This document shows, piece after piece, positions 2,470 to 60,540 of a stretch of 64,000 bases of DNA. Origin of the DNA: Gemmatimonadales bacterium (GTDB taxonomy: Bacteria; Gemmatimonadota; Gemmatimonadetes; Gemmatimonadales; GWC2-71-9); contig JBGASX010000015.1 of the NCBI GenBank assembly GCA_044229445.1, positions 3,753 to 67,752 on the forward strand, written 5' to 3'. Position numbers and translations under genes: made by a program. The stretch's first letter is position 1. Every line of letters begins with the position of its first letter. The notes under the pieces are model-generated. The model had not been told where the DNA came from. It worked only from the letters and a program-made list of their open reading frames with translations, and ran no database searches.

Positions 2470-5193
2470 TCAGGCGCATCCGAGCTGCCCGCGCTTCGCC
2501 GCGATCGCCGCGGCCTGCTGCTCCATCGCGGCGAGCTTTTCGCGCTCCTTGGCCACGACGTCGGCGGGTGCGCGGCTCACGAACTGGTCGTTGCCGAGCT
2601 TCTTGTGCTGGCTCTCGATGAGTCCCGTCAGGCGGGCGTGCTCCGCGCCCAGGCGCTGGCACTCCTTCTGGAGGTCGACGAGGTCGCCGAGTGCGATATA
2701 GAGCGCTGTCCCGTCCTGGAGGACGGCATTCGCCCCCGGCTCCGCGAGGGGCTCCCCGTAGGTCAGGGTGCCGACCTTCGCGAGTCGGGTGATGGTGCCC
2801 TCCTCGGCGGTGAACGCGCGATGGCGACGGGAAATGCGCAGGTTCACCTGCTTGCCCGGTTCCACGCCGTACTCCGCCCGGATCTGCCGCACCGCGCCGA
2901 CCAGCTCCTGCACGGCCGCGAAGTCCCGCTCGCCGGCGTCATCCTGCGCGAACCGGGCGGGGAGAGGCCAGGGTGCCGCCGTGATCGAGGCGTCGGTCGC
3001 CCGTCCCGGGAACCGCTTCCACAGCGCCTCGGTGATGAACGGCATGATCGGATGCAGCATCTGCAGCGCGACTTCGAAGCAGCGCGTGACCACGGCACGG
3101 GCCACGTCGCCGCCCGGCTCGCTGCCGTAGAGCCGTGGCTTGATCTGCTCGAGATACCAGTCCGCGAGATCGCTCCAGACGAAGTGGTAGATCGTCGAGG
3201 CTGCCTCATTGAGGCGATACTTCTCGTAGCTCGCGGTCGCCTCGCGCACCATGCGGTCGCAGCGCGCGACGATCCAGCGGTCGGCGAGCGAGAGCTCCTC
3301 GCGCCGCAGCGCGTCCGTGTGCCGCCCCGCGAGGGGACGGACCGCGCCGCCGTAGGGGCGCGCCGGGGAATCCGCGCCTGCCTCCGGCAGGTTGGTCAGG
3401 ATGAAGCGTCCCGCGTTCCAGAGCTTGTTCGCGAAGTTGCGGCCCGGCGCGAAGGAAGTCTCGAGGTCGTTCGGGTCGAGGATGACATCGGTGCCGACGG
3501 CCATGCCCGCGATGACGGTGTAGCGCAGCGCGTCGGCGCCGAACTTCTCGACCACCTCGAGCGGATCGATCCCGTTCCCGAGCGACTTCGACATCTTGCG
3601 ATGCTGGGTATCGCGTACCGTGCCGTGCAGGTAGACGGTGTGGAAGGGGATGTCGCCCATGAACTCCACCCCCGCCATCACCATCCGCGCGACCCAGAAG
3701 AAGAGAATCTCGGGGGCGGTCACCAGCACGGAGCCGGGGTAGAAGCGCGCGAGATCCTCGGTGTTCTCAGGCCAGCCGAGGGACGAGAACGGCACCAGCC
3801 AGGAGGAAAACCAGGTGTCGAGCACATCCTCGTCCTGACGGAGCGCCCCGCCGCAGGCGCAGACGCTGAGGTCGGTCCGGCTCACCAGCGTCTTGCCGCA
3901 GTCGTCGCAGTACCAGACGGGGATGCGATGTCCCCACCAGAGCTGCCTCGAGATGCACCAGTCGCGGATGCCCTCCATCCACTGGGCATACTCGTCACCC
4001 CGGCGCTCGGGAATGAAACGGAGCCGGCCATCGGTGTAGGCCTTGAGGGCGGGCTTCGCCAGCGGCGCCATCTTCACGAACCACTGATCCGAGAGGCGCG
4101 GTTCGACCACCGTGTCGCAGCGATAACAGTGGCCCACCGCGTGTCGATGGCTCTCGACGCCAGCGAGGAGTCCCAGCGCCTCGAACTCCGCCACGACCTT
4201 CTTGCGCGCGTCGTAGCGGTCGAGGCCCTGGAAGCGATCGGGCACCGTCTCGGCCATCCGCGCTTCCGGGGTCATGATGTCGATCTGGGCGAGGCCGTGC
4301 CGCTGGCCAATCTCGAAGTCCACCGGATCGTGGGCCGGGGTCACCTTCACCGCGCCGGTGCCGAACTCCTTGTCGATGGCGCTGTCGGCGATGATCGGGA
4401 TTTCCCGGTCCGTCAGCGGGAGTTGCAGCCGCTTGCCGATCAGCGCGGCATACCGCTCGTCATCAGGATGCACCGCCACCGCGGTGTCGCCGAGCATCGT
4501 CTCCGGCCGGGTCGTCGCCACGGTCACGTGACCGCTGCCGTCCGCCAGGGGATAGCGGAGCCGCCAGATCCGCCCGTCGGTCTCTTCCTTTTCCGCCTCT
4601 TCATTGGAAAGCGCAGTCAGGCAGCGGGGGCACCAATTGATGATGTACTTCCCGCGATAGATGAGTCCCTTCTCATGCAGGCGCACGAAGACTTCGCGCA
4701 CGGCCCGGGAGAGGTCGTCGTCGAGGGTGAAGTAGGTGCGCGACCAGTCGGCGCTCGCGCCGATCGCCTTGAGCTGGTCGAGGATCTCGCCCCCGGTCTT
4801 CTCCACGAAGCTCCAGACCCGCCGCACGAATTCCTCACGGCCCAGGTCGAAGCGGGTCATCCCCTCTTTCGCGACCAGCTTTTCCACCACGTTCTGCGTG
4901 GCGATCCCGGCATGGTCGGTGCCGGGCAGCCACAGCACCTGGCGTCCCCGCATGCGCTCGAAGCGGGCGAGCACGTCCTGGACGCTGTTGTTCAGTCCGT
5001 GGCCCATGTGCAGCACCGCCGTCACGTTGGGCGGCGGCATCATGATCACGTACGGGGCCGAGGCATTGCCTTGAGCGGCCGAGGCATGCCTGGGCGTCGC
5101 AGGCTCGAAGCAGCGACGCTCCAGCCAGAACCGGTACAGGTCGGACTCGATGGCAGCAGGATTGTATTGCGGGGGGAGCGTCGTGTCGTTCAT
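2470..5193 (-). CDS. valS: valine--tRNA ligase
   Basis: 907-aa ORF with class I aaRS motifs: PPPNVTAVLHMGHGLNN (HIGH-type) and KMSKSLGN (KMSKS). It is full length and has a C-terminal coiled-coil-like tail. Confidence 0.97.
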   Translation of the reverse strand: MNDTTLPPQYNPAAIESDLYRFWLERRCFEPATPRHASAAQGNASAPYVIMMPPPNVTAVLHMGHGLNNSVQDVLARFERMRGRQVLWLPGTDHAGIATQNVVEKLVAKEGMTRFDLGREEFVRRVWSFVEKTGGEILDQLKAIGASADWSRTYFTLDDDLSRAVREVFVRLHEKGLIYRGKYIINWCPRCLTALSNEEAEKEETDGRIWRLRYPLADGSGHVTVATTRPETMLGDTAVAVHPDDERYAALIGKRLQLPLTDREIPIIADSAIDKEFGTGAVKVTPAHDPVDFEIGQRHGLAQIDIMTPEARMAETVPDRFQGLDRYDARKKVVAEFEALGLLAGVESHRHAVGHCYRCDTVVEPRLSDQWFVKMAPLAKPALKAYTDGRLRFIPERRGDEYAQWMEGIRDWCISRQLWWGHRIPVWYCDDCGKTLVSRTDLSVCACGGALRQDEDVLDTWFSSWLVPFSSLGWPENTEDLARFYPGSVLVTAPEILFFWVARMVMAGVEFMGDIPFHTVYLHGTVRDTQHRKMSKSLGNGIDPLEVVEKFGADALRYTVIAGMAVGTDVILDPNDLETSFAPGRNFANKLWNAGRFILTNLPEAGADSPARPYGGAVRPLAGRHTDALRREELSLADRWIVARCDRMVREATASYEKYRLNEAASTIYHFVWSDLADWYLEQIKPRLYGSEPGGDVARAVVTRCFEVALQMLHPIMPFITEALWKRFPGRATDASITAAPWPLPARFAQDDAGERDFAAVQELVGAVRQIRAEYGVEPGKQVNLRISRRHRAFTAEEGTITRLAKVGTLTYGEPLAEPGANAVLQDGTALYIALGDLVDLQKECQRLGAEHARLTGLIESQHKKLGNDQFVSRAPADVVAKEREKLAAMEQQAAAIAAKRGQLGCA

Positions 5194-5618
5194 GCGGGGA
5201 GGTCGGTCGCGTCGAGGGCGGGCTCGGCGGCATCGTCCTCGCCGTGCACGAGGAGACAGTTCACGAGGGTGTCGATGCCGGCGGTCTGGCTCACCAGGCG
5301 GAAGGCGTGGGTGCGAAGCGCCCGGGTCGGTACCCAGCCGTGGAGTTCCACGATGCCCGGCCCCACGCCGATGGGGGCCAGTTCGAGCCCCTTGAGTCGG
5401 GGGTCATGTTCCAGCGTCAGGCGAGCGGCGCGGGCGGCCTCGGACGGGGTCAGCCGGGCGGCACCGCGGGGCTGCGTGACCCGGCGCAGCGCGCGACCGG
5501 TACGCTCCCGCGACATCGGGCCCAGCCATTCACCGAGCGCAAAACCGGCGGCCACACCAACGACGGTGCCGACGAGGGTCCAGGCGAGGAGTTCGGAAGC
5601 GGAAGGACGGCGCGACAT
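5190..5618 (-). CDS. BON-domain-like membrane protein
   Basis: 142-aa ORF with an N-terminal TM helix (LLAWTLVGTVVGVAAGFALG). A BON-like segment follows (IVELHGWVPTRALRTHAFRLVSQTAGIDTLVNCL). Its stop overlaps the valS start (ATGA at 5190-5193). Confidence 0.6.
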   Translation of the reverse strand: MSRRPSASELLAWTLVGTVVGVAAGFALGEWLGPMSRERTGRALRRVTQPRGAARLTPSEAARAARLTLEHDPRLKGLELAPIGVGPGIVELHGWVPTRALRTHAFRLVSQTAGIDTLVNCLLVHGEDDAAEPALDATDLPA

Positions 5619-5670
5619 GATCGTGGATATGCTCTTACGCTGGTCATCGGCGAGCAGCTAAATTAACACC

Positions 5671-5823
5671 ATGAGTGAAGATAACATGCAGGTGAGTGGT
5701 GTTGCCCTCGGGCGCTGGGCGGTGTTCGCCCTGCTCCTGCTGGTCGGGCTGGTCTGGTATTTCCTGTCCTCGCCCCGGGTTCCGCCCATTATCCGCCCGC
5801 CTGCGGCCCAGGAGACGCCATGA
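5671..5823 (+). CDS. small (50 aa) single-TM protein, translationally coupled to thrS
   Basis: Below the ORF-track size cutoff, so translated by hand: MSEDNMQVSGVALGRWAVFALLLLVGLVWYFLSSPRVPPIIRPPAAQETP*. It has one clear hydrophobic helix and GC-rich third positions in the helix. Its TGA (5821-5823) overlaps the thrS ATG (5820-5822). Confidence 0.4.
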   Translation: MSEDNMQVSGVALGRWAVFALLLLVGLVWYFLSSPRVPPIIRPPAAQETP

Positions 5824-7742
5824 GCATGATCCGGCTTACCCTCCCCGATGGCAGCGTTCGCGAGGTCGACTCAGGCACCACTGCCAGGGAGGTGGCCCAG
5901 TCGATCGGTGCGGGGCTGGCGCGCGCCGCCCTCGCCGCCCGCGTCAACGGACAGATTCGCGACCTCGACCGGCCGATCACCGAGGATGCCGCCTTCGCCA
6001 TCCTCACGGAGAAGGACCCCGACGCGCTCGATGTGCTGCGTCACTCCGCGGCCCACATCCTCGCCACCGCCGTCCGCGAGCTCTTCCCCACGGCGGCGAT
6101 CGGCTTCGGTCCGCCGATCGAGGATGGCTTCTACTACGACTTCGAGGTCGAACGGCCCTTCACGCCGGAAGACCTGGCGACGATCGAAAAGCGGATGGCC
6201 GAGGTGACGGCGAAGGATTACCCCTTCGTCCGCGAGGTCGTGGATCGGGCCGAGGCCAATCAGCGCTTCCGGGACGATCCGCTCAAGCTCGAACGGATCC
6301 GTGACCTCGGCGACGACGAGACCATCACCGTCTACACGGACGGACCGTTCGTCGACCTCTGCCGCGGCCCGCACATCCCCAGCACGTCCCGCCTCAAGCA
6401 TTTCAAGCTGCTGTCGGCGGCCGGCGCCTACTGGCGCGGCGATTCCAACCGCCAGATGCTGCAGCGGATCTATGGGACGGCGTGGTTCAAGAAGGAGGAC
6501 CTCGAGGCATATACCCACCGGCTCGAGGAGGCCCGCAAGCGAGACCACCGGAAGGTGGGCAAGGAACTCGACCTGTTCGTGTTCCACCCCTTCGCCCCGG
6601 GTGCGCCGTTCTGGACCGATCGCGGCACGGCGATCTACAACACCCTCAACGCCTACATGCGCGAACTGCAGCGCGATGGCTACCAGGAGATCAAGACGCC
6701 GCTGCTGTACAACAAGGGCCTGTGGGAGATCTCCGGGCACTGGGGCAAGTATCGCGAGAACATGTTCCTCGTCCACAACAACGAGACGGGCGAGCAGGAC
6801 ATGTCGCTCAAGCCGATGAACTGTCCCAGTCATCATCTGCTCTACGCGACCGGCAAGCATTCCTACCGCGAGTTGCCGATCCGCTACAGCACCTACGACG
6901 TGCTGCACCGCAACGAGGTGAGCGGCGCGCTCGCGGGGCTCACGCGCGTCCGCCAGTTCCAGCAGGACGACTGCCACATCTACCTGATGGAGTCGCAGAT
7001 CGCGGACGAGGTGCGAACCCTCACCCGCTTCATCCTCGACTACTACAAGACCTTCGGGCTCACCGCCACGCTCAAGTTCGCTACCCGCCCGGAGCAGCGG
7101 ATCGGCGACGACGCGATGTGGGATCGGGCGGAAGGGGCGCTTCGCGCCGCGCTCGAGGCGACCGGACTCCCCTACGAACTCAAGCCCGGCGATGGCGCCT
7201 TCTACGGGCCGAAGATCGACTTCGATGTGGCCGACTCGATCGGGCGGACGTGGCAGCTCGGCACCATCCAGCTCGACTACGCCGCGCCGGAGCGGTTCGA
7301 CCTCAAGTACGTCGGCGAGGACAATCACGATCACCGCCCGGTGATCATCCACCGCGCGGTGAACGGCTCCTTCGAGCGGTTCATCGCGATCCTGATCGAG
7401 CATTTCGCCGGGGCCTTCCCGCTCTGGCTCGCGCCGGAGCAGGTGCGGGTGCTGCCGATCTCCGATGTGCAGGAGGCGGCCGCCGCCAAGGTGCACCAGA
7501 TGCTCCGGGACGCCGGTCTCCGCGCCACGCTCGGCGCCGGGAGCCAGACCCTCAATTACCGTATTCGCGAGGGCGAGATGCAGCGGGTGCCGTACATGGC
7601 CGTCGTCGGCCAGCGCGAAGCCGAGAATGGCACCGTAGCGATTCGGGTGCGCGGGGCGGGGAACAAGCAGGAGATCATCCCGGCGAGCGAATTCGTCGCC
7701 CGGCTCACGGAACAGGTGCGCAGCCGGGCGCTGGTGCCATGA
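5820..7742 (+). CDS. thrS: threonine--tRNA ligase
   Basis: 640-aa ORF. N-terminal TGS-like region (MIRLTLPDGSVREVDSGTTAREVAQSIG), a second additional domain, a class II core and an anticodon-binding C-terminus. Typical ThrRS length and layout. Confidence 0.97.
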   Translation: MSMIRLTLPDGSVREVDSGTTAREVAQSIGAGLARAALAARVNGQIRDLDRPITEDAAFAILTEKDPDALDVLRHSAAHILATAVRELFPTAAIGFGPPIEDGFYYDFEVERPFTPEDLATIEKRMAEVTAKDYPFVREVVDRAEANQRFRDDPLKLERIRDLGDDETITVYTDGPFVDLCRGPHIPSTSRLKHFKLLSAAGAYWRGDSNRQMLQRIYGTAWFKKEDLEAYTHRLEEARKRDHRKVGKELDLFVFHPFAPGAPFWTDRGTAIYNTLNAYMRELQRDGYQEIKTPLLYNKGLWEISGHWGKYRENMFLVHNNETGEQDMSLKPMNCPSHHLLYATGKHSYRELPIRYSTYDVLHRNEVSGALAGLTRVRQFQQDDCHIYLMESQIADEVRTLTRFILDYYKTFGLTATLKFATRPEQRIGDDAMWDRAEGALRAALEATGLPYELKPGDGAFYGPKIDFDVADSIGRTWQLGTIQLDYAAPERFDLKYVGEDNHDHRPVIIHRAVNGSFERFIAILIEHFAGAFPLWLAPEQVRVLPISDVQEAAAAKVHQMLRDAGLRATLGAGSQTLNYRIREGEMQRVPYMAVVGQREAENGTVAIRVRGAGNKQEIIPASEFVARLTEQVRSRALVP

Positions 7743-53049: not shown

Positions 53050-53187
53050 ATGTCGGACAACAATGGCGGGATGACGGACGACGAGGCCAGAGCGTTCCAC
53101 GGGACCTTCGTCGCCATGACGGCGGTGTTCATTCTGACCGCGGCCGTCGCGCATTTCTTGGCCTGGAGCTGGCGCCCCTGGCTCTGA
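53050..53187 (+). CDS. pufB: light-harvesting complex beta polypeptide
   Basis: ORF 52954..53187 trimmed to ATG 53050. 45 aa: MSDNNGGMTDDEARAFHGTFVAMTAVFILTAAVAHFLAWSWRPWL. It has the canonical beta pattern (E-x-x-x-FH, A-x-x-AH-x-L-x-W-x-WRPW). Confidence 0.9.
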   Translation: MSDNNGGMTDDEARAFHGTFVAMTAVFILTAAVAHFLAWSWRPWL

Positions 53188-53224: not shown

Positions 53225-53389
53225 ATGTATCGCATGTGGAAAGGGCTGGACGCCAGATTTGTCCTCAGCGTCTCCGGCGCCGCTGTTTCGCTGATCGCCG
53301 TGTACATCCACATCTGGGCGTTCAGCATCACCGGTTGGCCGAAGACGGCGCGCGTGAAGTACAACCCGCCTGCCGCCATCGCGCCGTAA
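53225..53389 (+). CDS. second light-harvesting alpha-type polypeptide (pufA paralog)
   Basis: Below the ORF-track cutoff, so translated by hand: MYRMWKGLDARFVLSVSGAAVSLIAVYIHIWAFSITGWPKTARVKYNPPAAIAP*. GAGAGGG lies 5 nt upstream. It aligns with the downstream pufA product (M-RxW-GLD-R-VL...AV-IH), including the putative BChl-ligating His. Confidence 0.7.
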   Translation: MYRMWKGLDARFVLSVSGAAVSLIAVYIHIWAFSITGWPKTARVKYNPPAAIAP

Positions 53390-53488
53390 CCTGGTACGCA
53401 GAGGGGACCATGGGACCGGGTACCGCCGGTCTGTGCCGGGCACCCGGCCCATGACTCCTCGATCACACCTCTGAATCGAGGCTTGAGT

Positions 53489-53704
53489 ATGCACCGCATT
53501 TGGCTAGGACTTGACCCGCGCAAGGTGCTGGTTGCCACGGCGGGCGGGCTGGGGCTGCTGGCAGTGGTGATTCACCTCATCCTGCTCAGCTCCGTGCGTT
53601 ACGCGTGGATCGAGAACGGCACCTTGCCGTCCGAGAAGGCCCCAGTGGCCGCCTCCTCGCCCGCTGCCGCGGCCGAGATGGCACCGCTGCCGCCGAACCG
53701 GTAG
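53489..53704 (+). CDS. pufA: light-harvesting LH1 alpha polypeptide
   Basis: ORF 53483..53704 trimmed to ATG 53489. Sequence MHRIWLGLDPRKVLVATAGGLGLLAVVIHLILLSSVRYAWIENG..., the canonical alpha pattern, followed by an Ala/Pro-rich C-terminal tail. Confidence 0.9.
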   Translation: MHRIWLGLDPRKVLVATAGGLGLLAVVIHLILLSSVRYAWIENGTLPSEKAPVAASSPAAAAEMAPLPPNR

Positions 53705-53831: not shown

Positions 53832-54656
53832 ATGGCGATGCTCTCATTCGAACGCAAGTACCGAGTCCGCGGCGGGACTCTGATCGGCGGCGACCTGTTC
53901 GACTTCTGGGTCGGGCCGTTCTACGTCGGATTCTTCGGCCTGTCCGCCATCTTCTTCATCGCTCTCGGGGTGATGCTCATTCTCTGGGGTGCGGCCATCG
54001 GGCCGACCTGGAATGTCTGGCGCATCAACATCGCGCCGCCCGACCTGAGCTATGGTCTCAACATGGCGCCCCTTGCCCAAGGGGGGCTCTGGCAGCTCAT
54101 CACCATGTGTGCGGTCGGGGCGTTCGTGTCCTGGGCGCTCCGGCAAGCCGAGATCGCCCGGAAACTGGGAATGGGCCTGCACATCTCGTGGGCCTTCTCC
54201 GCCGCCGTCTTCGCCTACGTCAGCCTCGTGGTCATTCGACCGCTGCTGCTGGGGGCGTGGGGACACGGGTTCCCGTACGGCATCTTCAGTCACCTGGACT
54301 GGGTGTCGAACACGGGCTACCAGTACCTGCACTTTCATTACAACCCGCTGCACATGATCGCGATCACCTTCTTCTTCACCAACTGCCTCGCGCTCGCGAT
54401 GCACGGGTCGCTGATTCTGTCAGTGACCAATCCGAAGAAGGGGCAGCCGGTCAAGACCAGCGAACACGAAAACGTCTTCTTCCGCGACTTCCTCGGCTAC
54501 TCGATCGGCGCGATCGGCATCCATCGCCTGGGAACGTTCCTCGCGATGAGTGCGGCGATCTTCAGCGCACTCTGCATCCTGGTCTCCGGTCCGCTCTGGA
54601 CCCGGGGCTGGCCGGAGTGGTGGTCCTGGTGGCTAAACCTCCCGATCTGGAAGTGA
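53832..54656 (+). CDS. pufL: photosynthetic reaction centre subunit L
   Basis: 274-aa ORF containing [58 protein letters not shown] and AMHGSLILS. Confidence 0.97.
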
Positions 54657-54668
54657 GGTACCCGAGCC

Positions 54669-56084
54669 ATGCTTGAATACCAGAACATCTTCACTCGGGT
54701 ACAGGTCCGTGCCGCGCCGGATCTGGGCCTGCCCATCTCGACCAAATCGGGCAGCCGCCTCATCAAGCCGTTCTTCAGCAAGTGGATCGGCAAGATCGGC
54801 GACGCGCAGATCGGCCCGATCTACCTGGGAACGACCGGCCTCCTGTCACTGCTGTTCGGCTTCATGGCGATCGAGATCATTGGTCTCAATTTCCTGAAGC
54901 AGGTGAACTGGAGCCCCGTCGAGTTCCTGCGCCGCCTGCCGTGGCTCACGCTCGAGCCGCCGGCGCCGGTGTACGGGCTGCACATCCCGCCGCTCGCCAA
55001 GGGTGGCTGGTATCTCATCGCGGGTGGCCTGCTCACCTTCTCGATCATCCTCTGGTGGGTCCGCACCTACCGCCGGGCGCGCGCGCTCGGCCTGGGGACG
55101 CACCTCGCCTGGGCGTTCGCGTCGGCGATCTTCCTCTACCTGAGCTTCTTCTTCCAGCCGCTGCTCGTCGGCAGCTGGAGCGAGATGGTGCCGTTCGGCA
55201 TCTTCGCCCATCTCGACTGGACCTCGGCGTTCTCGATCCGGTACGGGAACCTCTACTACAACCCGTTCCACGCCCTGTCGATCGCCTTTCTGTACGGCTC
55301 CGCCGTGCTCTTCGCCATGCACGGCGCCACGATCCTCGCGGTGAGCCGCGTCGGTGGTGAACGGGAAATCGAGCAGATCACCGACCGCGGGACCGCGGCG
55401 GAACGGGCCGCGCTCTTCTGGCGCTGGACGATGGGCTGGAACGCCACGATGGAGTCGATCCATCGCTGGGCCTGGTGGTTCGCCGTGCTGACCACCTTCA
55501 CCGGTGGCATCGGCATCCTGCTGACCGGCACGGTGGTCGACAACTGGTACCTGTGGGGTCAGAAGCACGGACTGGTCGCCGATTATCCGGCGCAGAACCC
55601 GAACCTGACGCCCGCCGATCTCGAGAAGCTCCGGGGCCGCTATTCGGGAACCCAGCCGGACAGCTTCCCGAGCTACCAGCCGGTGGCGCCGGTGGTGGTA
55701 CCCGTGGTGACCTCGACGGAGATCATCTCCGCGATCGGCAAGACCGGGCGCATCGCGACCGAGGCGATCCTGTTCGAGGTGGGGAGCAACGCGATCCTGC
55801 CGGAGTCGAAGCCGCAGCTGGCCGAAATCGGCCGCGCGCTGTCCGACCAGCCGAAGCTCGCGCTGGTCATCGAAGGCCACACCGACAGCATGGGGGTCGC
55901 CGACAGCAACCAGGTGCTCTCCGAGCGGCGCGCTAACGCGGTCCGGGACTACCTGGTGACGAACTTCAAGGTGGCGCCGGCCCGGCTGACCGCCGTCGGC
56001 TACGGGTCCTCTCGCCCCATCGCGGCGAATGACACTCCTGAAGGACGCGCGCACAACCGGCGTGTCGAACTGGTGAAGCCATGA
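54669..56084 (+). CDS. pufM: photosynthetic reaction centre subunit M fused in frame to a C-terminal OmpA-like peptidoglycan-binding domain
   Basis: 471-aa uninterrupted ORF. Residues 1 to about 303 form a full M subunit ([13 protein letters not shown]...[24 protein letters not shown]...[10 protein letters not shown]...[17 protein letters not shown]). Residues about 304-366 are a Pro-rich linker. Residues about 367-471 read [22 protein letters not shown]...[31 protein letters not shown]...[26 protein letters not shown], which is OmpA_C-like. Confidence 0.95.
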
Positions 56085-57298
56085 CCAACGCATCTGGAAG
56101 GTTGGTACCCAGCTGGATCGCCCGCGGAGGCGCACTCGTCCTCGCGGTTGCCATCCTGACGCTCGGCGCGACGGGCTGCGAGATCGGCCGCAAATATTCG
56201 ACCCAGCGTGCCTACCGCGGCACCGGCATGGAGAACATCTATGACCGGACGGTCCTCGACGCGAAGGCCACCGCGGTCGCGGCGAAGATCCCGGCAACCC
56301 TCCCGGCGGCGCCGCCGCCAAGCGCGGGCCCGCTGCCGTGGCGGAATGTGCAGGTGCTCAACGACATCGGTGCGGCGGAATTCACCCGGACCATGCTGGC
56401 GATGAGCACCTGGGTGGCGGGCACGGGCAACTGTGCCTATTGCCACAACATCGCGGCGCCGTGGGACGATACCCTGCCGAACGGCAAGCCGATCTATACC
56501 AAGATCGTCGCGCGCCGGATGCTCCAGATGGTCAGGAACATCAATGGCAATTACGCCGGACACGTCGCCAATACCGGCGTGACCTGCTACACCTGCCATC
56601 TCGGCAAGCCGATCCCGAACGGAGTGTGGTTCTATACCGAACCGAATCAGCTCGAGCGCTATTTCCTCGATCGCGACGGCGTCCGGGTACAGTCACACGA
56701 AGTGCTGGCCAGCACCGCCAGCCTGACGAACCGCTCGTCGGCGAAGCAGGCGGAGTGGACGTACGCGCTGATGATCAAGCTGTCGTCGAGTCTCGGCGTG
56801 AGCTGCAACCACTGCCACAACAGCCGCGCCTTCTGGTCCTGGGAGCAGGCGCCGCCGCAGCGCGTGGTGGCCCTCCTCGCGGCCAACATGGTGCGCGATC
56901 TGAACCAGCATTACCTGGCGCCCCTGCAGCCCGTGTTCCCGGCGGTCCGGCTCGGCAAGATGGGTGATGCGCCGAAGCTCCAGTGCCTGACCTGCCACAA
57001 CGGGGCGTACAAGCCGCTGTACGCCTACCCGATGGTGAAGGACTATCCCGCGCTCTGGGGTCGTCCGGACTGGAATGGCACGCCGTTCCCGCGGATCCCG
57101 ACGGCCGAGGAAGAGGCCGCCGCGATCGCCCGGGCCAAGGCGGACAGCATCGCCGCGGCCAAGGCCGCGACGCAGCCGGCCGCACCTGCGGCTGCTCCCG
57201 CCGCCGCGCCGGCGCCCGCCGCCGGGGATAAGGCGAGCGGTGCCATGGGTGGGCAGGGTCCTGCGGGGAAGGACACCACTGCGAAGAAGAAGCCCTAG
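56081..57298 (+). CDS. pufC: reaction-centre tetrahaem cytochrome c subunit (lipoprotein)
   Basis: 405-aa ORF with an ATGA overlap on the pufM stop. Lipobox LTLGATGC. Four CxxCH motifs (CAYCH, CYTCH, CNHCH, CLTCH). Ala/Pro-rich C-terminal tail ending in KKKP. Confidence 0.93.
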
Positions 57299-57448: not shown

Positions 57449-58099
57449 GTGGTGACCGTGACTGTACGTCGACTGCCAGTCTACATCCTCGCGGACGTCT
57501 CCGGCTCCATGCAGGGCACGCCGATCGAATCGGTGAAGTCAGGCATCAGCCAGCTCCACCGCGACCTGATGAGCGATCCCCAGGCCATCGAGAGCGCGTA
57601 CCTCTCGATCGTGACCTTTGCGAACACCGCAGAGCAGGTGGTGCCGCTGACGGAGGTGTCGCTCTTCAATCCCCCGAACCTGGTGGCGAGCGGTAACACC
57701 AATTTCGGCGACGCCCTCCGGCTGCTGCTCGAGTGCTTCGAGCACGAGATCGTACGGACGACCCCGGAACAGAAGGGGGACTGGAAGCCCCTCGTGTTCA
57801 TCCTGAGCGACGGGGCTCCGACCGACACCGCCTGGCCCGATTACGCCCAGCAGCTCCGCAATCGCCGGCCGGCCAACATCATCGCGGTGGCCTGTGGCGA
57901 CCAGGCGGATGTGAACTGCCTCAAGCAGGTGACGGAAGTCGTCATCCAGATGAAGGATCTGTCGCCCGATTCCTTCCGCGCCTTCTTCAAGTTCGTTTCG
58001 GCCTCGGTGCGCCAGACCAGCGCCAAGGTTGGCGCCCTCGCCGAGGGCGGTGCGATCACCCTGCCGCCGCCTCCGCCCGGCATCACGATCGTACCCTGA
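57449..58099 (+). CDS. TerY-type von Willebrand factor A domain protein
   Basis: 216-aa ORF. The start could be GTG 57449, 57452 or 57458 (GAGG at 57447-57450). Contains RRLPVYILADVSGSMQGTPIESV (MIDAS DxSGS), GNTNFGDAL, KGDWKPLVFILSDGAPTD and a C-terminal LPPPPPGITIVP. This matches the TerY-like vWA family as I know it. Confidence 0.85.
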   Translation: MVTVTVRRLPVYILADVSGSMQGTPIESVKSGISQLHRDLMSDPQAIESAYLSIVTFANTAEQVVPLTEVSLFNPPNLVASGNTNFGDALRLLLECFEHEIVRTTPEQKGDWKPLVFILSDGAPTDTAWPDYAQQLRNRRPANIIAVACGDQADVNCLKQVTEVVIQMKDLSPDSFRAFFKFVSASVRQTSAKVGALAEGGAITLPPPPPGITIVP

Positions 58100-58101
58100 A
58101 G

Positions 58102-59100
58102 GTGGATGCGAAGACCGTGCGACCGGAGCCAGCCACGTCCGAGGTGGAGCCGGGAGCGCTGCCCGCCGCGCCCGCCTGGCTCGATCGTGCGCCGGAGGGC
58201 CCCTGGTGTCCCCCGGAGCTCCGGGAGGCGCTTCCGTGGGCCGCTGCGGCGGATTACGCCGATCTCCGCACCGCGTTGCATCCGTGGCGCGCCGGGTGGA
58301 CCCTTGTCGGGGCCAGCCGGCGCGGTCGGCTGCATGCCCACCGCGGCGAATTCCGTGAAGATGCGTTCGGCATCGAGACGGGCGAGCAGTTCTTCCTTCT
58401 CGTGGCCGCGGACGGCGCGGGGTCGTGCCGCCTCAGCCGGATCGGCTCCGAGTGCGCCTGCCGGGCGGTCGTCCGGCGCCTCGGTGCCGTGCTGGCCGAT
58501 GTGGTGCCTCCTGCCATGGATTCTCCCGCTCTGCACCAGTGGCTTGCTGCGCTGCTCGCGCCCGCACTCTCGGCCGCGATCCAGGATGTGGCGGAACTGG
58601 CTCGTGCTTCCGGGATCGACCCCAGGGAGTTCCGTACCACGCTGCTCACCGCAGTCTGGTTCGCGTCCCCCGCCGGGGAGCTGCTCGCGGTTTCCCAGGT
58701 TGGCGATGGCTTCATCGCGGCTCGCCGGAGTGACGGGCGGGTGGAGCGGCTCGGCGCTGGTGACGTGAGCGAGTTCTCGGGAGAGGTCAGCTGCTTCGTA
58801 CCGGATGACGGGGCCTCGACCCGCGCGCAGGCGATCGCCGTGACCGACGGTGCCGATGTCACGGCCATCCTGCTCGGGACCGACGGGGTCGAGGATCCGT
58901 TTTATCCCATCGAGCGCCACGGTGCACTGCTCTACAGCCAGCTCGTCGGTGGCGTCTCCGAGCCCGCGCAACACTTCCAGCGCCAGGAATCCCAGGGGCC
59001 CGTCTTCGCGCCGGATGGGGACCAGCAGCTCGCCCGCTGGCTCGGCTTTGAGCGCCGGGGCGAGAACGACGATCGCACACTCGTGGCGGCCTGGCGGTGA
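58102..59100 (+). CDS. PP2C-family (PP2C_2-type) protein phosphatase
   Basis: ORF 57733..59100 trimmed to GTG 58102, 2 nt after the vWA stop (alternative GTG 58117). Contains RRGRLHAHRGEFREDAF, LLVAADGAGSC, VGDGFIAA and LLGTDGVEDPF. Confidence 0.75.
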   Translation: MDAKTVRPEPATSEVEPGALPAAPAWLDRAPEGPWCPPELREALPWAAAADYADLRTALHPWRAGWTLVGASRRGRLHAHRGEFREDAFGIETGEQFFLLVAADGAGSCRLSRIGSECACRAVVRRLGAVLADVVPPAMDSPALHQWLAALLAPALSAAIQDVAELARASGIDPREFRTTLLTAVWFASPAGELLAVSQVGDGFIAARRSDGRVERLGAGDVSEFSGEVSCFVPDDGASTRAQAIAVTDGADVTAILLGTDGVEDPFYPIERHGALLYSQLVGGVSEPAQHFQRQESQGPVFAPDGDQQLARWLGFERRGENDDRTLVAAWR

Positions 59101-59109
59101 GGTGAGCTC

Positions 59110-60540
59110 ATGCGATATCTCACCGCACGATTGACCGACGGGCAGACCGTGCAGTTCGAGGACCAGCCGATCAACTCCGGCGCGGAGAAGGTCGTGTTCT
59201 TCTCGCGCGATCGACGGCAGGTCGTGGGCTTCTTCTTCGGGCAGATGCGGGATCGGCTGGAACGGGTCGACCGGCTCAACAAGATCCTCACGAAGTACAA
59301 CCCCACGACGGACCGCCATGGCGGGTACTGGGCCCCGTACTTCTGCTGGCCCACCGGCATCATCGACGGCGACCGGGGCATCCCTCCCGAATTCCTCCGC
59401 GCCTACGGCCTGGTGTCACCGGCGCTCGGGGTGATCGCGCCGGTGTACCGTCCCTCGTTCTTCTTCCACGACCGGTTCGGGCACCGGCAGGAGAAGGAGG
59501 TGAAGTGGTTCACGGGGCGGAAGGCAAGCGCGCTGGTCCCGGAGCATGAGCGCGGCAACTTTCTCACCCGGCTGCAGATCTGCACCCGGCTTGCCCGCGC
59601 GGTGCGGCGGATGCATTTCGCCGGCCTGGCGCATGCCGATCTCTCGAACAAGAATGTGCTGATCGACCCGAAGAGCGGCGACGTCTGCGTCATCGACATC
59701 GACTCGCTCGTCGTTCCCGGGGTCGCGCCGCCGACGGTCCTCGGGACGCCAGGCTACATCGCGCCGGAGGTGCTCGGGCGCGGGGCGCAACCGTCGATCG
59801 CCACGGACAAGCATGCGCTCGCCGTCCTCATCTACCAGATCCTGCTCAATCGCCATCCGTTGCAGGGGAAGAAGGTGCACAGCACCCGGTCGGCCGAGGA
59901 GGATGAGCGGCTTTCCATGGGGAGCAAGGCTCTCTTCGTCGAGCATCCGACGGACCGCAGCAATCCCCCGGTGCTGCCGATCCGGGTTCCGATGTCGCGC
60001 CTCGGGCCGCACCTCGAACCACTCTTTCTCAAGACGTTCGTGCATGGGCTCCACACGCCCTCCCGGCGCGCCGATGCCGCGGAGTGGGAGATGGCGCTCT
60101 ATCGCACCCTGAACCTGCTGCACCCGACGCCCTCCGGCCGGGACTGGTTCGTCCTTGGTCCGGAGATGCCGAGGCAGTGCCCGACGACGGGAGAGCGAGT
60201 CCATCACCCGGTGCCGGTCGCGCGGTACTTCCGCGATCTGGATGGGCGGCTCGCCGACGAGCAGCAGTCGCTCGTCATCTTCCACAATCTCGTGCTGCAC
60301 GACTGGCACACCCGTCCCGGCGTCATCCCCGGGGAACATGCCGACCGCACGCCGCGCGGCTACTTCTCGCTCCATCAGGGGCGATGGTGGCTCGTGAACC
60401 TGCAGGAGGAGCCGATCGAGGTCCTCGGCGGCTCGGCCATCGCGCGCAACGCCGCGGTGGAGCTGAGCGCCGGCCTCGACCTGCGGATGCCAGGCACCGA
60501 GCAGCGGCGCGTGCTCCGCATCGGATTCCACCGGCCCTGA
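59110..60540 (+). CDS. atypical Ser/Thr protein kinase (TerY-triad type) with uncharacterised C-terminal domain
   Basis: 476-aa ORF with catalytic-loop-like LAHADLSNKNVLID, DID in place of DFG (VCVIDIDSLVV), GTPGYIAPEVL and DKHALAVLIYQILLNRHPL. The C-terminal 150 aa or so are not recognised. Confidence 0.75.
   Translation: MRYLTARLTDGQTVQFEDQPINSGAEKVVFFSRDRRQVVGFFFGQMRDRLERVDRLNKILTKYNPTTDRHGGYWAPYFCWPTGIIDGDRGIPPEFLRAYGLVSPALGVIAPVYRPSFFFHDRFGHRQEKEVKWFTGRKASALVPEHERGNFLTRLQICTRLARAVRRMHFAGLAHADLSNKNVLIDPKSGDVCVIDIDSLVVPGVAPPTVLGTPGYIAPEVLGRGAQPSIATDKHALAVLIYQILLNRHPLQGKKVHSTRSAEEDERLSMGSKALFVEHPTDRSNPPVLPIRVPMSRLGPHLEPLFLKTFVHGLHTPSRRADAAEWEMALYRTLNLLHPTPSGRDWFVLGPEMPRQCPTTGERVHHPVPVARYFRDLDGRLADEQQSLVIFHNLVLHDWHTRPGVIPGEHADRTPRGYFSLHQGRWWLVNLQEEPIEVLGGSAIARNAAVELSAGLDLRMPGTEQRRVLRIGFHRP

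Follow-up and report, generated by a model that had tools for sequence, protein, structure and literature searches.

We analysed a 64,000-nucleotide stretch of DNA from a Gemmatimonadales bacterium (GenBank assembly GCA_044229445.1, contig JBGASX010000015.1, positions 3,753 to 67,752 of the forward strand), hereafter the window, which carries the puf genes of a type-II photosynthetic reaction centre (RC). Its pufM gene, at 54669..56084 on the forward strand, is a single uninterrupted open reading frame (ORF) of 471 residues, in which a complete M subunit is followed by a linker and by an OmpA-like domain of the peptidoglycan-binding type. The same architecture recurs in many independent assemblies of Gemmatimonadota, and the OmpA-like domain is under purifying selection. 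On balance, we favour the view that this domain would anchor the photosystem to the sacculus. Few membrane proteins are as well studied as reaction centres, which are usually seen as freely diffusing, or as packed by protein–protein and lipid contacts only. If our view is true, a wall anchor built covalently into the M subunit couples the photosynthetic apparatus to the sacculus.

The M subunit, its linker and the OmpA-like domain

The N-terminal part of the product is a complete M subunit, the pufM core (54669..55577, forward strand, residues 1–303). A first-pass annotation of the window, made from the letters of the sequence, had proposed this extent, and the NCBIfam model TIGR01115 (pufM) bears it out by covering residues 1–302 over nearly the whole profile (positions 1–303 of 305, 509.4 bits against a cut-off of 364), which places the protein in the PufM family. 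The core shares about 79% identity with the RC-M chains of Gemmatimonas (7o0u and 9h19). The cofactor ligands of an M subunit, His181, His201, His218, Glu233 and His265, are all present, and are invariant or nearly so in 47 homologues. We take these residues to correspond to M182, M202, M219, M234 and M266 of Rba. sphaeroides, presumably the histidine ligands of the accessory and special-pair bacteriochlorophylls and the His/His/Glu ligands of the non-haem iron. The numbering offset of one residue agrees with the alignment to 1aig_M.

The same annotation held that the frame continues without a stop from the M subunit into the OmpA part, and it named as support a profile search that would find both parts in one polypeptide. 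Both points were borne out. The ORF is uninterrupted, and Pfam recognizes Photo_RC (PF00124) at residues 51–302 (334.7 bits, E = 4.3e-100) and OmpA (PF00691) at residues 368–464; the latter match spans profile positions 1–98 of 98 with 84.4 bits against a cut-off of 27.2 (E = 7.6e-24), and makes the C-terminal part a member of the OmpA family. The GC content at third codon positions (GC3) is even along the gene, with values of 0.91, 0.86 and 0.90 for the core, the linker and the OmpA part, respectively. No promoter-like or terminator-like site was found inside pufM, and the extension contains neither an ATG ahead of Met408 nor a hydrophobic run long enough for a transmembrane helix. The pufM stop TGA (56082–56084) overlaps the pufC start ATG (56081–56083), as read from '...gtgaagccATGAccaac', and to judge from this overlap pufC is translationally coupled to pufM. 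With the ATGA kept and no internal promoter-like or terminator-like site, the extension fills the pufM–pufC junction and is not a separately initiated gene, in line with the earlier claim.

The OmpA-like peptidoglycan-binding domain is predicted at 55710..56081 (forward strand, residues 348–471) from Pfam, AlphaFold, Foldseek and the ratio of nonsynonymous to synonymous substitution rates (dN/dS), and consists of an N-terminal helix followed by a β-α-β-α-β-β arrangement. Its identity as an OmpA_C-like domain had been recognized at the outset; the extent given then, about 105 residues, is too short, and the structural domain spans approximately residues 348–471 when the N-terminal helix is included. 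Modelled alone with a 70-sequence alignment, the domain reaches a pLDDT (per-residue confidence) of 90.7 and a predicted TM-score of 0.85; within the full-length model its pLDDT is 83–98. Foldseek superposes this model on solved peptidoglycan-binding domains with TM-scores of 0.78–0.85 and root-mean-square deviations (RMSD) of 0.9–1.7 Å. Among them are the OmpA C-terminal domain of Capnocytophaga (5wtp; RMSD 0.9 Å, TM-score 0.85), the OmpA-like domain of Acinetobacter baumannii (3td3 and 3td5 at about 1.7 Å, with a TM-score of 0.81 for 3td5; 3td4 and 3td5 are complexes with diaminopimelate and peptidoglycan pentapeptide) and the C-terminal domain of OprF (5u1h; RMSD 1.6 Å, TM-score 0.79); TagL, YfiB, Pal, MotB and MotS are also matched. 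The predicted domain thus has the β-α-β-α-β-β OmpA-like fold and is superimposable on solved domains. A sub-threshold match to DUF748 (29.9 against 50 bits), which overlaps the start of the domain, was disregarded.

The peptidoglycan-contacting core of the domain had been described as intact, and this holds in that the binding residues are invariant across 47 fused homologues. In the alignment to 3td3_A, Asp406 (the Asp of GHTD; codon 55884..55886, forward strand) corresponds to Asp271 of A. baumannii OmpA, and Arg421 (the second Arg of SERRA; codon 55929..55931, forward strand) corresponds to Arg286; these two residues bind diaminopimelate in the Acinetobacter protein (PMC12108004). The two are 15 residues apart, with the same spacing as Asp271 and Arg286, and both are invariant in the 47 fused PufM proteins and in 70 OmpA-family relatives. 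The residues further invariant in the fused proteins are Phe369, Ser380, Thr405, Gly409, Asn414, Leu417, Ser418, Arg426, Leu429, Gly444, Gly446, Asn454, Arg460 and Asn463–Val466. In total, 19 positions of the domain are invariant, although the mean identity of the domain is only about 51% and the RC cores of the fused clades have diverged to 75% identity.

Selection was estimated from the window and its syntenic orthologue in GCA_044229695.1 (locus L081; 85% identical). The dN/dS value is 0.40 for the OmpA part, 0.11 for the core, 0.09 for pufL and 0.19 for pufC. The synonymous divergence of the OmpA part is 0.51 and therefore not saturated, and its proportion of nonsynonymous differences is lower than that of synonymous differences (Z of about 3.4 against neutrality). 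The ratio of 0.40, significantly lower than 1, places the OmpA-like domain under purifying selection, although less strong than that on the catalytic core. From its sequence and its predicted fold the domain looks functional, and the conserved pocket suggests that it would physically bind peptidoglycan.

Between the core and the domain lies a linker of about 44 residues (304–347). A Pro-rich linker of about 60 residues had been expected; a linker is indeed present, but it is shorter, and its first 33 residues are not a generic spacer. They form a conserved periplasmic block (55578..55676, forward strand, residues 304–336), which starts with ADYPAQN and ends in PDSFPSY, as defined by alignment to 7o0u_M and 9h19_M, and which is common to the solved, unfused M subunits of Gemmatimonas. 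Eight linker positions are invariant (Tyr306, Pro307, Leu321, Gly323, Tyr325, Gly327, Pro330 and Pro334), and the linker has a dN/dS of 0.31 against the L081 orthologue. The PDSFPSY motif (residues 330–336; 55656–55676) is the most conserved of the linker and is kept in fused and unfused PufM of Gemmatimonadota. Ser332 of this motif aligns with Ser331 of the G. phototrophica RC-M, which is O-glycosylated in the cryo-EM map (PMC8849296). In that structure, the linker lies on the periplasmic face and touches RC-S, RC-C and the C-termini of light-harvesting complex 1 (LH1) (PMC8849296). The ordered part of M ends at the PDSFPSY motif, since the modelled Gemmatimonas M chains in the PDB comprise 335–336 residues, whereas the whole proteins have 367 and 392.

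The rest of the linker is a short variable tether (55677..55709, forward strand, residues 337–347), which has low pLDDT in the full-length model and no hydrophobic run of transmembrane length. The tether that follows PDSFPSY measures 8–11 residues in the clade of the window, 18–28 residues in two other clades and 33–35 residues in the most divergent clade, in which it is itself conserved. Positions 55692–55760 of the window (residues 342–364), which make up the helix at the N-terminus of the OmpA-like domain and its first strand, resemble a designed pentatricopeptide-repeat consensus, and we judged this to be a coincidence. The designed pentatricopeptide-repeat proteins returned by the PDB search (5orq, 5orm and 4pjq) were set aside as spurious, because one short similarity is multiplied by the repeats.

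The full-length AlphaFold model reproduces the RC core poorly (pLDDT of about 40–70; TM-score of 0.26 to real M chains). For this reason it did not serve to position the domain with respect to the membrane, and only the confidence of the domain and the disorder of the linker were taken from it. In type-II reaction centres, the C-terminus of the M subunit is periplasmic. This established topology, together with the periplasmic and glycosylated homologous linker (7o0u; PMC8849296), indicates by analogy that the C-terminal extension would be periplasmic as well.

Distribution and evolution of the fusion

The sharing of the fusion among lineages, which the first-pass annotation had put forward as a homology check, was addressed by a search of a 5.8-billion-protein collection (NCBI, JGI, ENA and Logan assemblies), from which the best 120 homologous clusters were taken. 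In 48 of the 120, PF00124 and PF00691 occur together in one protein of 465–613 residues, in independent assemblies, and every fused cluster that carries an organism name belongs to Gemmatimonadota. Some of the fused pufM genes lie on contigs of 1.9 and 3.5 Mb. At least two GTDB species representatives (L001 and L002) have the fusion among the matches listed of a genome-contig scan; these matches are mostly proteobacterial pufM and do not serve for counting fused against unfused species. A search of protein representatives was uninformative, since the cores of fused and unfused PufM exceed 50% identity and the two forms fall into shared clusters; its other matches were fragments or unrelated multi-domain OmpA proteins. 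The databases annotate the fused proteins plainly as 'photosynthetic reaction center subunit M'. The fusion is thus widespread and not singular to the window, and is probably an ancestral trait of PufM in Gemmatimonadota.

Several variants of the C-terminus were observed beside the common form. Four clusters (P0024 and P0030, of 609–613 residues, P0017 and P0020) have an extra tail of 25–130 residues rich in Ala, Pro and Gly beyond the OmpA-like domain, so the domain is internal in these proteins and the tail supplies the end that overlaps pufC. Two metagenome-assembled genomes (MAGs), one of Gemmatimonadales (L017) and one of Longimicrobiaceae (L019), encode PufM with Pro-rich tails of 120–130 residues that contain no recognizable domain. 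The PufM of 'Gemmatimonadales bacterium HK-STAS-GEMM-1' (L021, JACKDA010000003.1) groups with that of Rhodovulum sp. PH10 (L037), outside the Gemmatimonadota clade, in the tree described below; this may stem from a horizontal acquisition of its own or from misbinning. Apparent pufL–pufM fusions at L054 and L058, where the stop-free frames are long, were rejected because what lies upstream is pufL read out of frame.

A neighbour-joining (NJ) tree of the RC core (residues 40–303) was built from 134 sequences, among them proteobacterial and Myxococcota outgroups, with 100 bootstraps. It places a clade of fused proteins of 504 residues (bootstrap 100) basally within the Gemmatimonadota clade. Elsewhere in the tree, 42 fused and 37 unfused sequences are interleaved. 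The fused state is found in all four major PufM clades of the phylum, including the most divergent, and Fitch reconstruction gives a fused root with 11 changes. As the deepest nodes are weakly supported, the direction of change was not argued from the tree alone. Event counts do not discriminate either (14 events under gain only, 15 under loss only), so the direction was argued from co-divergence, from intermediates of deletion and decay, and from the implausibility of repeated identical gains.

Distances between OmpA-like domains follow those between RC cores, with a Mantel r of 0.77 that none of 2000 permutations reached. A decayed domain is present in P0027, which is nested in the clade of the window: GHTD has become FATD, an Ala/Pro insertion is present, NRRVE is lost, and the score against a hidden Markov model (HMM) of the fused domains is 57 bits. 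A clean deletion is present in P0038, which aligns to its fused sister P0024 over residues 1–367 and 504–608 and lacks exactly residues 368–503, the OmpA module. Because of the co-divergence, the decay, the clean deletion and the presence in all major clades, the fusion looks ancestral: it would have arisen once, early in the evolution of PufM in Gemmatimonadota, and have been inherited vertically and lost repeatedly, including in the cultured Gemmatimonas lineage. The comparison also suggests that the low-complexity tail of the Gemmatimonas RC-M is a remnant of the lost domain.

Regarding the donor, the nearest relatives of the domain outside reaction centres are glycine-zipper, YiaD-like OmpA lipoproteins of about 200–220 residues, at 50–55% identity. 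The best NCBIfam match of the C-terminal part is YiaD (NF053611; 113.7 bits against a cut-off of 175), of which only the OmpA part (profile positions 102–204) is matched, and the other matches, PA1041, YfiB, OprF/LptF, TssL and MotB, are all below their cut-offs. Since the nearest relatives and the NCBIfam ranking agree, the module was probably donated by the YiaD-like OmpA lipoprotein family. The window protein resembles this family but is not a member of it: it scores below the YiaD cut-off and lacks both a lipobox and a glycine zipper.

The module was also found on another subunit of the type-II reaction centre. At four loci of the genome scan, PufM has normal length and the OmpA-like domain stands at the C-terminus of PufC, with CytoC_RC and a full-length OmpA recognized by Pfam in each. 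These are in Myxococcota (L010:4747-6318), Hyphomonadaceae (L011:4702-6321), Sphingomonas (L012, approximately 5074–6429) and Polyangiaceae (L018:2896-4383). The PufC–OmpA fusion occurs in about 37 of the best 120 PufC clusters of the large protein collection, and no solved RC–LH1 structure in the PDB has it. As in the window PufM, the module is attached to the C-terminus of a periplasmic-side type-II RC subunit encoded in the same operon, and the sequences at the four loci keep the Asp…Arg pair at the same spacing. The carrier differs, being a tetrahaem cytochrome, and some of the proteins have Ca-binding, TSP3-like, Asp-rich linkers. The PufC domains are 32–42% identical to that of the window, compared with 50–55% for the free-standing lipoproteins; this greater distance and the different subunit point to at least one independent acquisition. 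Beside the OmpA-like domain on its PufC, the Polyangiaceae locus encodes a PufM of 414 residues (L018:1655-2899) with an acidic C-terminal tail of about 110 residues rich in Ala, Glu and Pro.

Proposed tethering to the sacculus and competing explanations

The mechanism that we favour, with a confidence that is better than even yet well short of firm, is as follows. The M subunit (residues 1–303) would insert normally, as a five-helix RC subunit with its C-terminus in the periplasm, and residues 304–336 would pack on the periplasmic face of the complex as they do in the Gemmatimonas RC-M. The OmpA-like domain (residues ~348–471), probably derived from a YiaD-like OmpA lipoprotein and held on the short flexible tether, would bind peptidoglycan stem peptides non-covalently via the Asp406/Arg421 pocket, in the manner of OmpA, OprF, Pal, MotB and TagL. 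Each photosystem in the cytoplasmic membrane, an RC with its double light-harvesting ring (RC–dLH), would thereby be pinned to the sacculus, and the pinning may restrict lateral mobility, stabilize the large complex and its periplasmic cytochrome, or both. The first-pass annotation had likewise placed the extra domain in the periplasm and read it as a wall tether, and our analysis supports that interpretation. We infer the periplasmic location, the peptidoglycan binding and the physiological consequence of tethering from sequence, predicted structure and analogy.

The closest analogue was found in photosystem I (PSI). A PDB search with the extension matched residues 751–863 of PsaB from Gloeobacter violaceus (7f4v chain aB) to the window domain with E = 2e-11. 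According to PMC11565984, the PsaB of G. violaceus has a unique C-terminal extension of 155 residues that resembles an outer-membrane protein, its translation is confirmed by mass spectrometry of isolated PSI, and the hypothesis was put forward that it anchors PSI to the peptidoglycan (Inoue et al., 2004, cited there). In both systems, a core photosystem subunit with a periplasm-facing C-terminus is extended by a linker and an OmpA-like domain, and by this analogy the PufM–OmpA fusion is the type-II counterpart of the Gloeobacter PsaB anchor. The carriers are different, since PsaB is an unrelated subunit of a type-I reaction centre, and the PsaB extension is confined to G. violaceus and G. morelensis (PMC11565984), whereas the PufM fusion spans a large radiation of Gemmatimonadota. 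Because of the different carriers, and because the PsaB domain is a weak match while free OmpA lipoproteins are far closer, the two fusions are independent events, a case of analogy and not of common descent. The first-pass annotation had supposed the fusion to be undescribed. This stands for type-II reaction centres: no description of PufM–OmpA or PufC–OmpA was found in the literature searched, including papers on the Gemmatimonas RC structure, Gemmatimonadota ecogenomics and Myxococcota photosynthesis gene clusters (PGCs). For the concept itself it does not stand, given the PsaB precedent.

Comparison with solved relatives places the fusion among known architectures. The RC-M chains of G. 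phototrophica and G. groenlandica (7o0u–7o0x, 9h19 and 9h22) are the closest solved homologues (query residues 1–354, E of about 1e-181), and they have in common with the window the arrangement of the PGC, the pair of pufA genes and the linker block as far as PDSFPSY, including the glycosylated Ser. They differ in ending with a low-complexity tail of 30–55 residues without an OmpA-like domain. The flagellar-type stators MotB, PomB and MotS and the type VI secretion proteins TssL and TagL follow the same logic, in that a transmembrane complex is joined through a periplasmic linker to an immobilizing OmpA-like domain, and the predicted fold matches TagL, MotB and MotS. The window PufM is not a member of these families, since the MotB/PomB and TssL/TagL scores are about 58–80 bits overall against NCBIfam cut-offs of 140–520 (58–69 bits against 253–301 for MotB, MotD and MotS; 80 against 140 for the long form of TssL). 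It also differs from them in lacking a plug or linker helix that controls an ion channel, in having a photosystem as the anchored machine and in having one anchor per complex instead of a dimer.

Several observations weigh against anchoring by this domain or against its ancestry. The domain is dispensable, with approximately 11–15 state changes by parsimony, and all cultured or solved species are without it; its dN/dS of 0.40, compared with 0.11 for the core, shows clearly weaker selection. In the clade of the window, the flexible tether extends only 8–11 residues past the ordered PDSFPSY motif, so the domain must sit near the surface that the RC and PufC present to the periplasm; whether it reaches the murein layer is uncertain and depends on the membrane–murein spacing in these organisms. 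Even in the Gloeobacter precedent, the PsaB extension is not seen in the cryo-EM map (PMC11565984), and anchoring is a proposed function there. Lastly, the deepest Gemmatimonadota nodes and the rooting of the NJ tree have bootstrap values of only 30–37.

The short tether, which keeps the domain beside the complex, would also suit a structural role within the photosystem. The OmpA-like domain would then dock on PufC, RC-L/M or the LH1 C-termini and stabilize the RC–LH1 interface, as RC-S does, without binding peptidoglycan. Gemmatimonas, which is without the domain, is stabilized by extra periplasmic extrinsic proteins such as RC-S (PMC8849296), and some OmpA-like domains, such as that of YfiB, act in protein–protein signalling. 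However, the invariant residues are those of the diaminopimelate-binding pocket (Asp406, Arg421 and the NRRVE block), the same as in free-standing peptidoglycan binders, and no conserved surface specific to the fusion stands out. A fourfold variation in tether length between clades fits poorly with one fixed docking site, and the module was independently attached to PufC and PsaB, whose surfaces differ. We therefore regard this structural role as unlikely. The domain might instead be a nearly neutral passenger, which stems from a chance fusion long ago, has no function today and is gradually disappearing. The many losses, the absence of the domain from all cultured phototrophic Gemmatimonadota and the constraint relaxed relative to the core agree with this, yet the ratio is significantly below 1, and 19 positions and an intact pocket are kept across clades whose cores are at 75% identity. 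Where constraint is truly lifted, visible decay (P0027) or deletion (P0038) follows, and the module's convergent attachment to PufC and to PsaB speaks for a benefit; a passenger is thus rather unlikely.

Cleavage would reconcile the fusion with the Gemmatimonas structures: the OmpA part would serve delivery or assembly, being removed after insertion or needed transiently, and the mature M subunit would be Gemmatimonas-like. Periplasmic RC maturation occurs in the phylum, as processing removes 60% of the length of RC-S in G. phototrophica (PMC8849296), and order in the solved M chains stops at about residue 336, whereas the proteins have 367–392 residues. On the other hand, the variable tether shows no evident conserved motif for cleavage, an OmpA protein needed separately would be simpler as its own gene with a signal peptide, and the Gloeobacter extension is detected by mass spectrometry in isolated PSI (PMC11565984). 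We consider such a delivery device quite improbable. Finally, a sequencing or assembly artefact, or separate pufM and OmpA genes joined by a missed stop or frameshift, a null reading for which no support was found, has next to no likelihood, given the uninterrupted frame, the lack of an internal promoter-like or terminator-like site and the absence of an ATG in the extension before Met408. Artefact, chance or a private frameshift is excluded because the same architecture is present in 48 clusters from four data sources, including Mb-scale contigs and two species representatives, and because GC3 is continuous.

In aerobic anoxygenic phototrophs and in Gloeobacter, the photosystems reside in the cytoplasmic membrane and not in internal membranes. 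This puts the wall within reach of the photosystem and may explain why such fusions occur in exactly these groups. More tentatively, and with a confidence somewhat below even, tethering of photosystems to the sacculus may be convergently recurrent with at least three origins: PufM in the ancestor of phototrophic Gemmatimonadota, PufC in the puf lineage of the Myxococcota/Sphingomonadales/Hyphomonadaceae type and PsaB in Gloeobacter. The ancestral RC–dLH of Gemmatimonadota would then have been wall-anchored, and the RC-M tail of Gemmatimonas would be the vestige of this state, its anchor perhaps replaced by extrinsic subunits such as RC-S.

Anchoring of this kind, if true, would bear on the mobility of the complex, the traffic of quinones and cytochromes, the membrane–periplasm spacing and the placement of photosystems during growth and division. 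The anchor idea for the Gloeobacter PsaB has been open for 20 years, and the module is now present in many lineages and on three subunits. The natural loss variants (P0027, P0038 and Gemmatimonas) are usable as controls, and loss of the domain is a candidate reason why the C-terminal tail of RC-M is disordered in the cryo-EM structures from Gemmatimonas. Lastly, pufM is a standard marker gene, and the annotation 'subunit M' hides a predicted functional extension of 170 residues in a large proportion of environmental Gemmatimonadota.

The photosynthesis gene cluster and neighbouring features

The window has a GC content of 68% and contains housekeeping genes (valyl- and threonyl-tRNA synthetases, serine hydroxymethyltransferase and enolase) followed by a PGC. 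The latter comprises a bchE-like radical-SAM gene, crtI/crtB-type genes, bchI/bchD, NifH-like and nitrogenase-like bch genes, pufB, two pufA genes, pufL, pufM and pufC. The bch and crt genes lie upstream of the puf genes, and pufL lies upstream and pufC downstream of pufM, which gives PufM its pufB-A-L-M-C operon context. The nearest named database proteins to the window PufM come from MAGs labelled 'Gemmatimonadales bacterium'. The syntenic relative GCA_044229695.1 (locus L081) has a PGC with the same fused pufM and additionally puhA, puhC, lhaA and acsF. Its puhA is split into PRCH products of 66 and 180 residues, a typical trait of phototrophic Gemmatimonadota (PMC8849296; PMC12817894).

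All puf genes of the window are on the forward strand. The light-harvesting (LH) β polypeptide is encoded by pufB at 53050..53187, with the internal ATG of 'MSDNNGG...' as the likely start; it is identified by its ORF, its position and the sequence motif AHFLAWSWRPWL. The small gene at the pufB position of L081 is without a Pfam match, and the identity of pufB is a matter of position and of the motif AHFLAWSWRPWL. The LH1 α polypeptide is encoded by pufA1 (53225..53389), an ORF with a syntenic 54-residue gene in L081, and a second α polypeptide of the Gemmatimonadota double-ring type by pufA2 (53483..53704), an ORF whose syntenic 71-residue gene in L081 matches PF00556 (LHC). A pufA2 gene is treated as a Gemmatimonadota trait (PMC12817894). 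The L subunit of 274 residues is encoded by pufL (53832..54656; Photo_RC at residues 30–273, E = 2.3e-97), and the tetrahaem RC cytochrome, with the lipobox LGATGC, by pufC (56081..57298; CytoC_RC, E = 2e-92), which shares the ATGA overlap with pufM. The window thus has two distinct pufA genes behind pufB, as do the Gemmatimonas species with a double LH ring. On the basis of the two pufA genes of the window and the split puhA of L081, organisms with fused PufM probably also make a complex of the RC–dLH type.

The C-termini of nearly all Gemmatimonadota PufM proteins, fused or unfused, read ...P or ...GGxxP (P0001–P0120). In the window, the codon of the terminal Pro of pufM is part of CCATGA, where the pufM stop and pufC start overlap (56070–56084 region). 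Since the Pro codon lies in this overlap, the conserved C-terminus probably reflects translational coupling and the ribosome-binding site of pufC and not a function of the protein.

Directly after pufC (57449–60540), the window encodes a vWA-domain protein, a PP2C-type phosphatase and a Ser/Thr protein kinase. The same trio is present in L081 (12700–15764) between pufC and puhC/puhA, and from this position it appears as a signalling trio that is embedded in the PGC and kept in both genomes.

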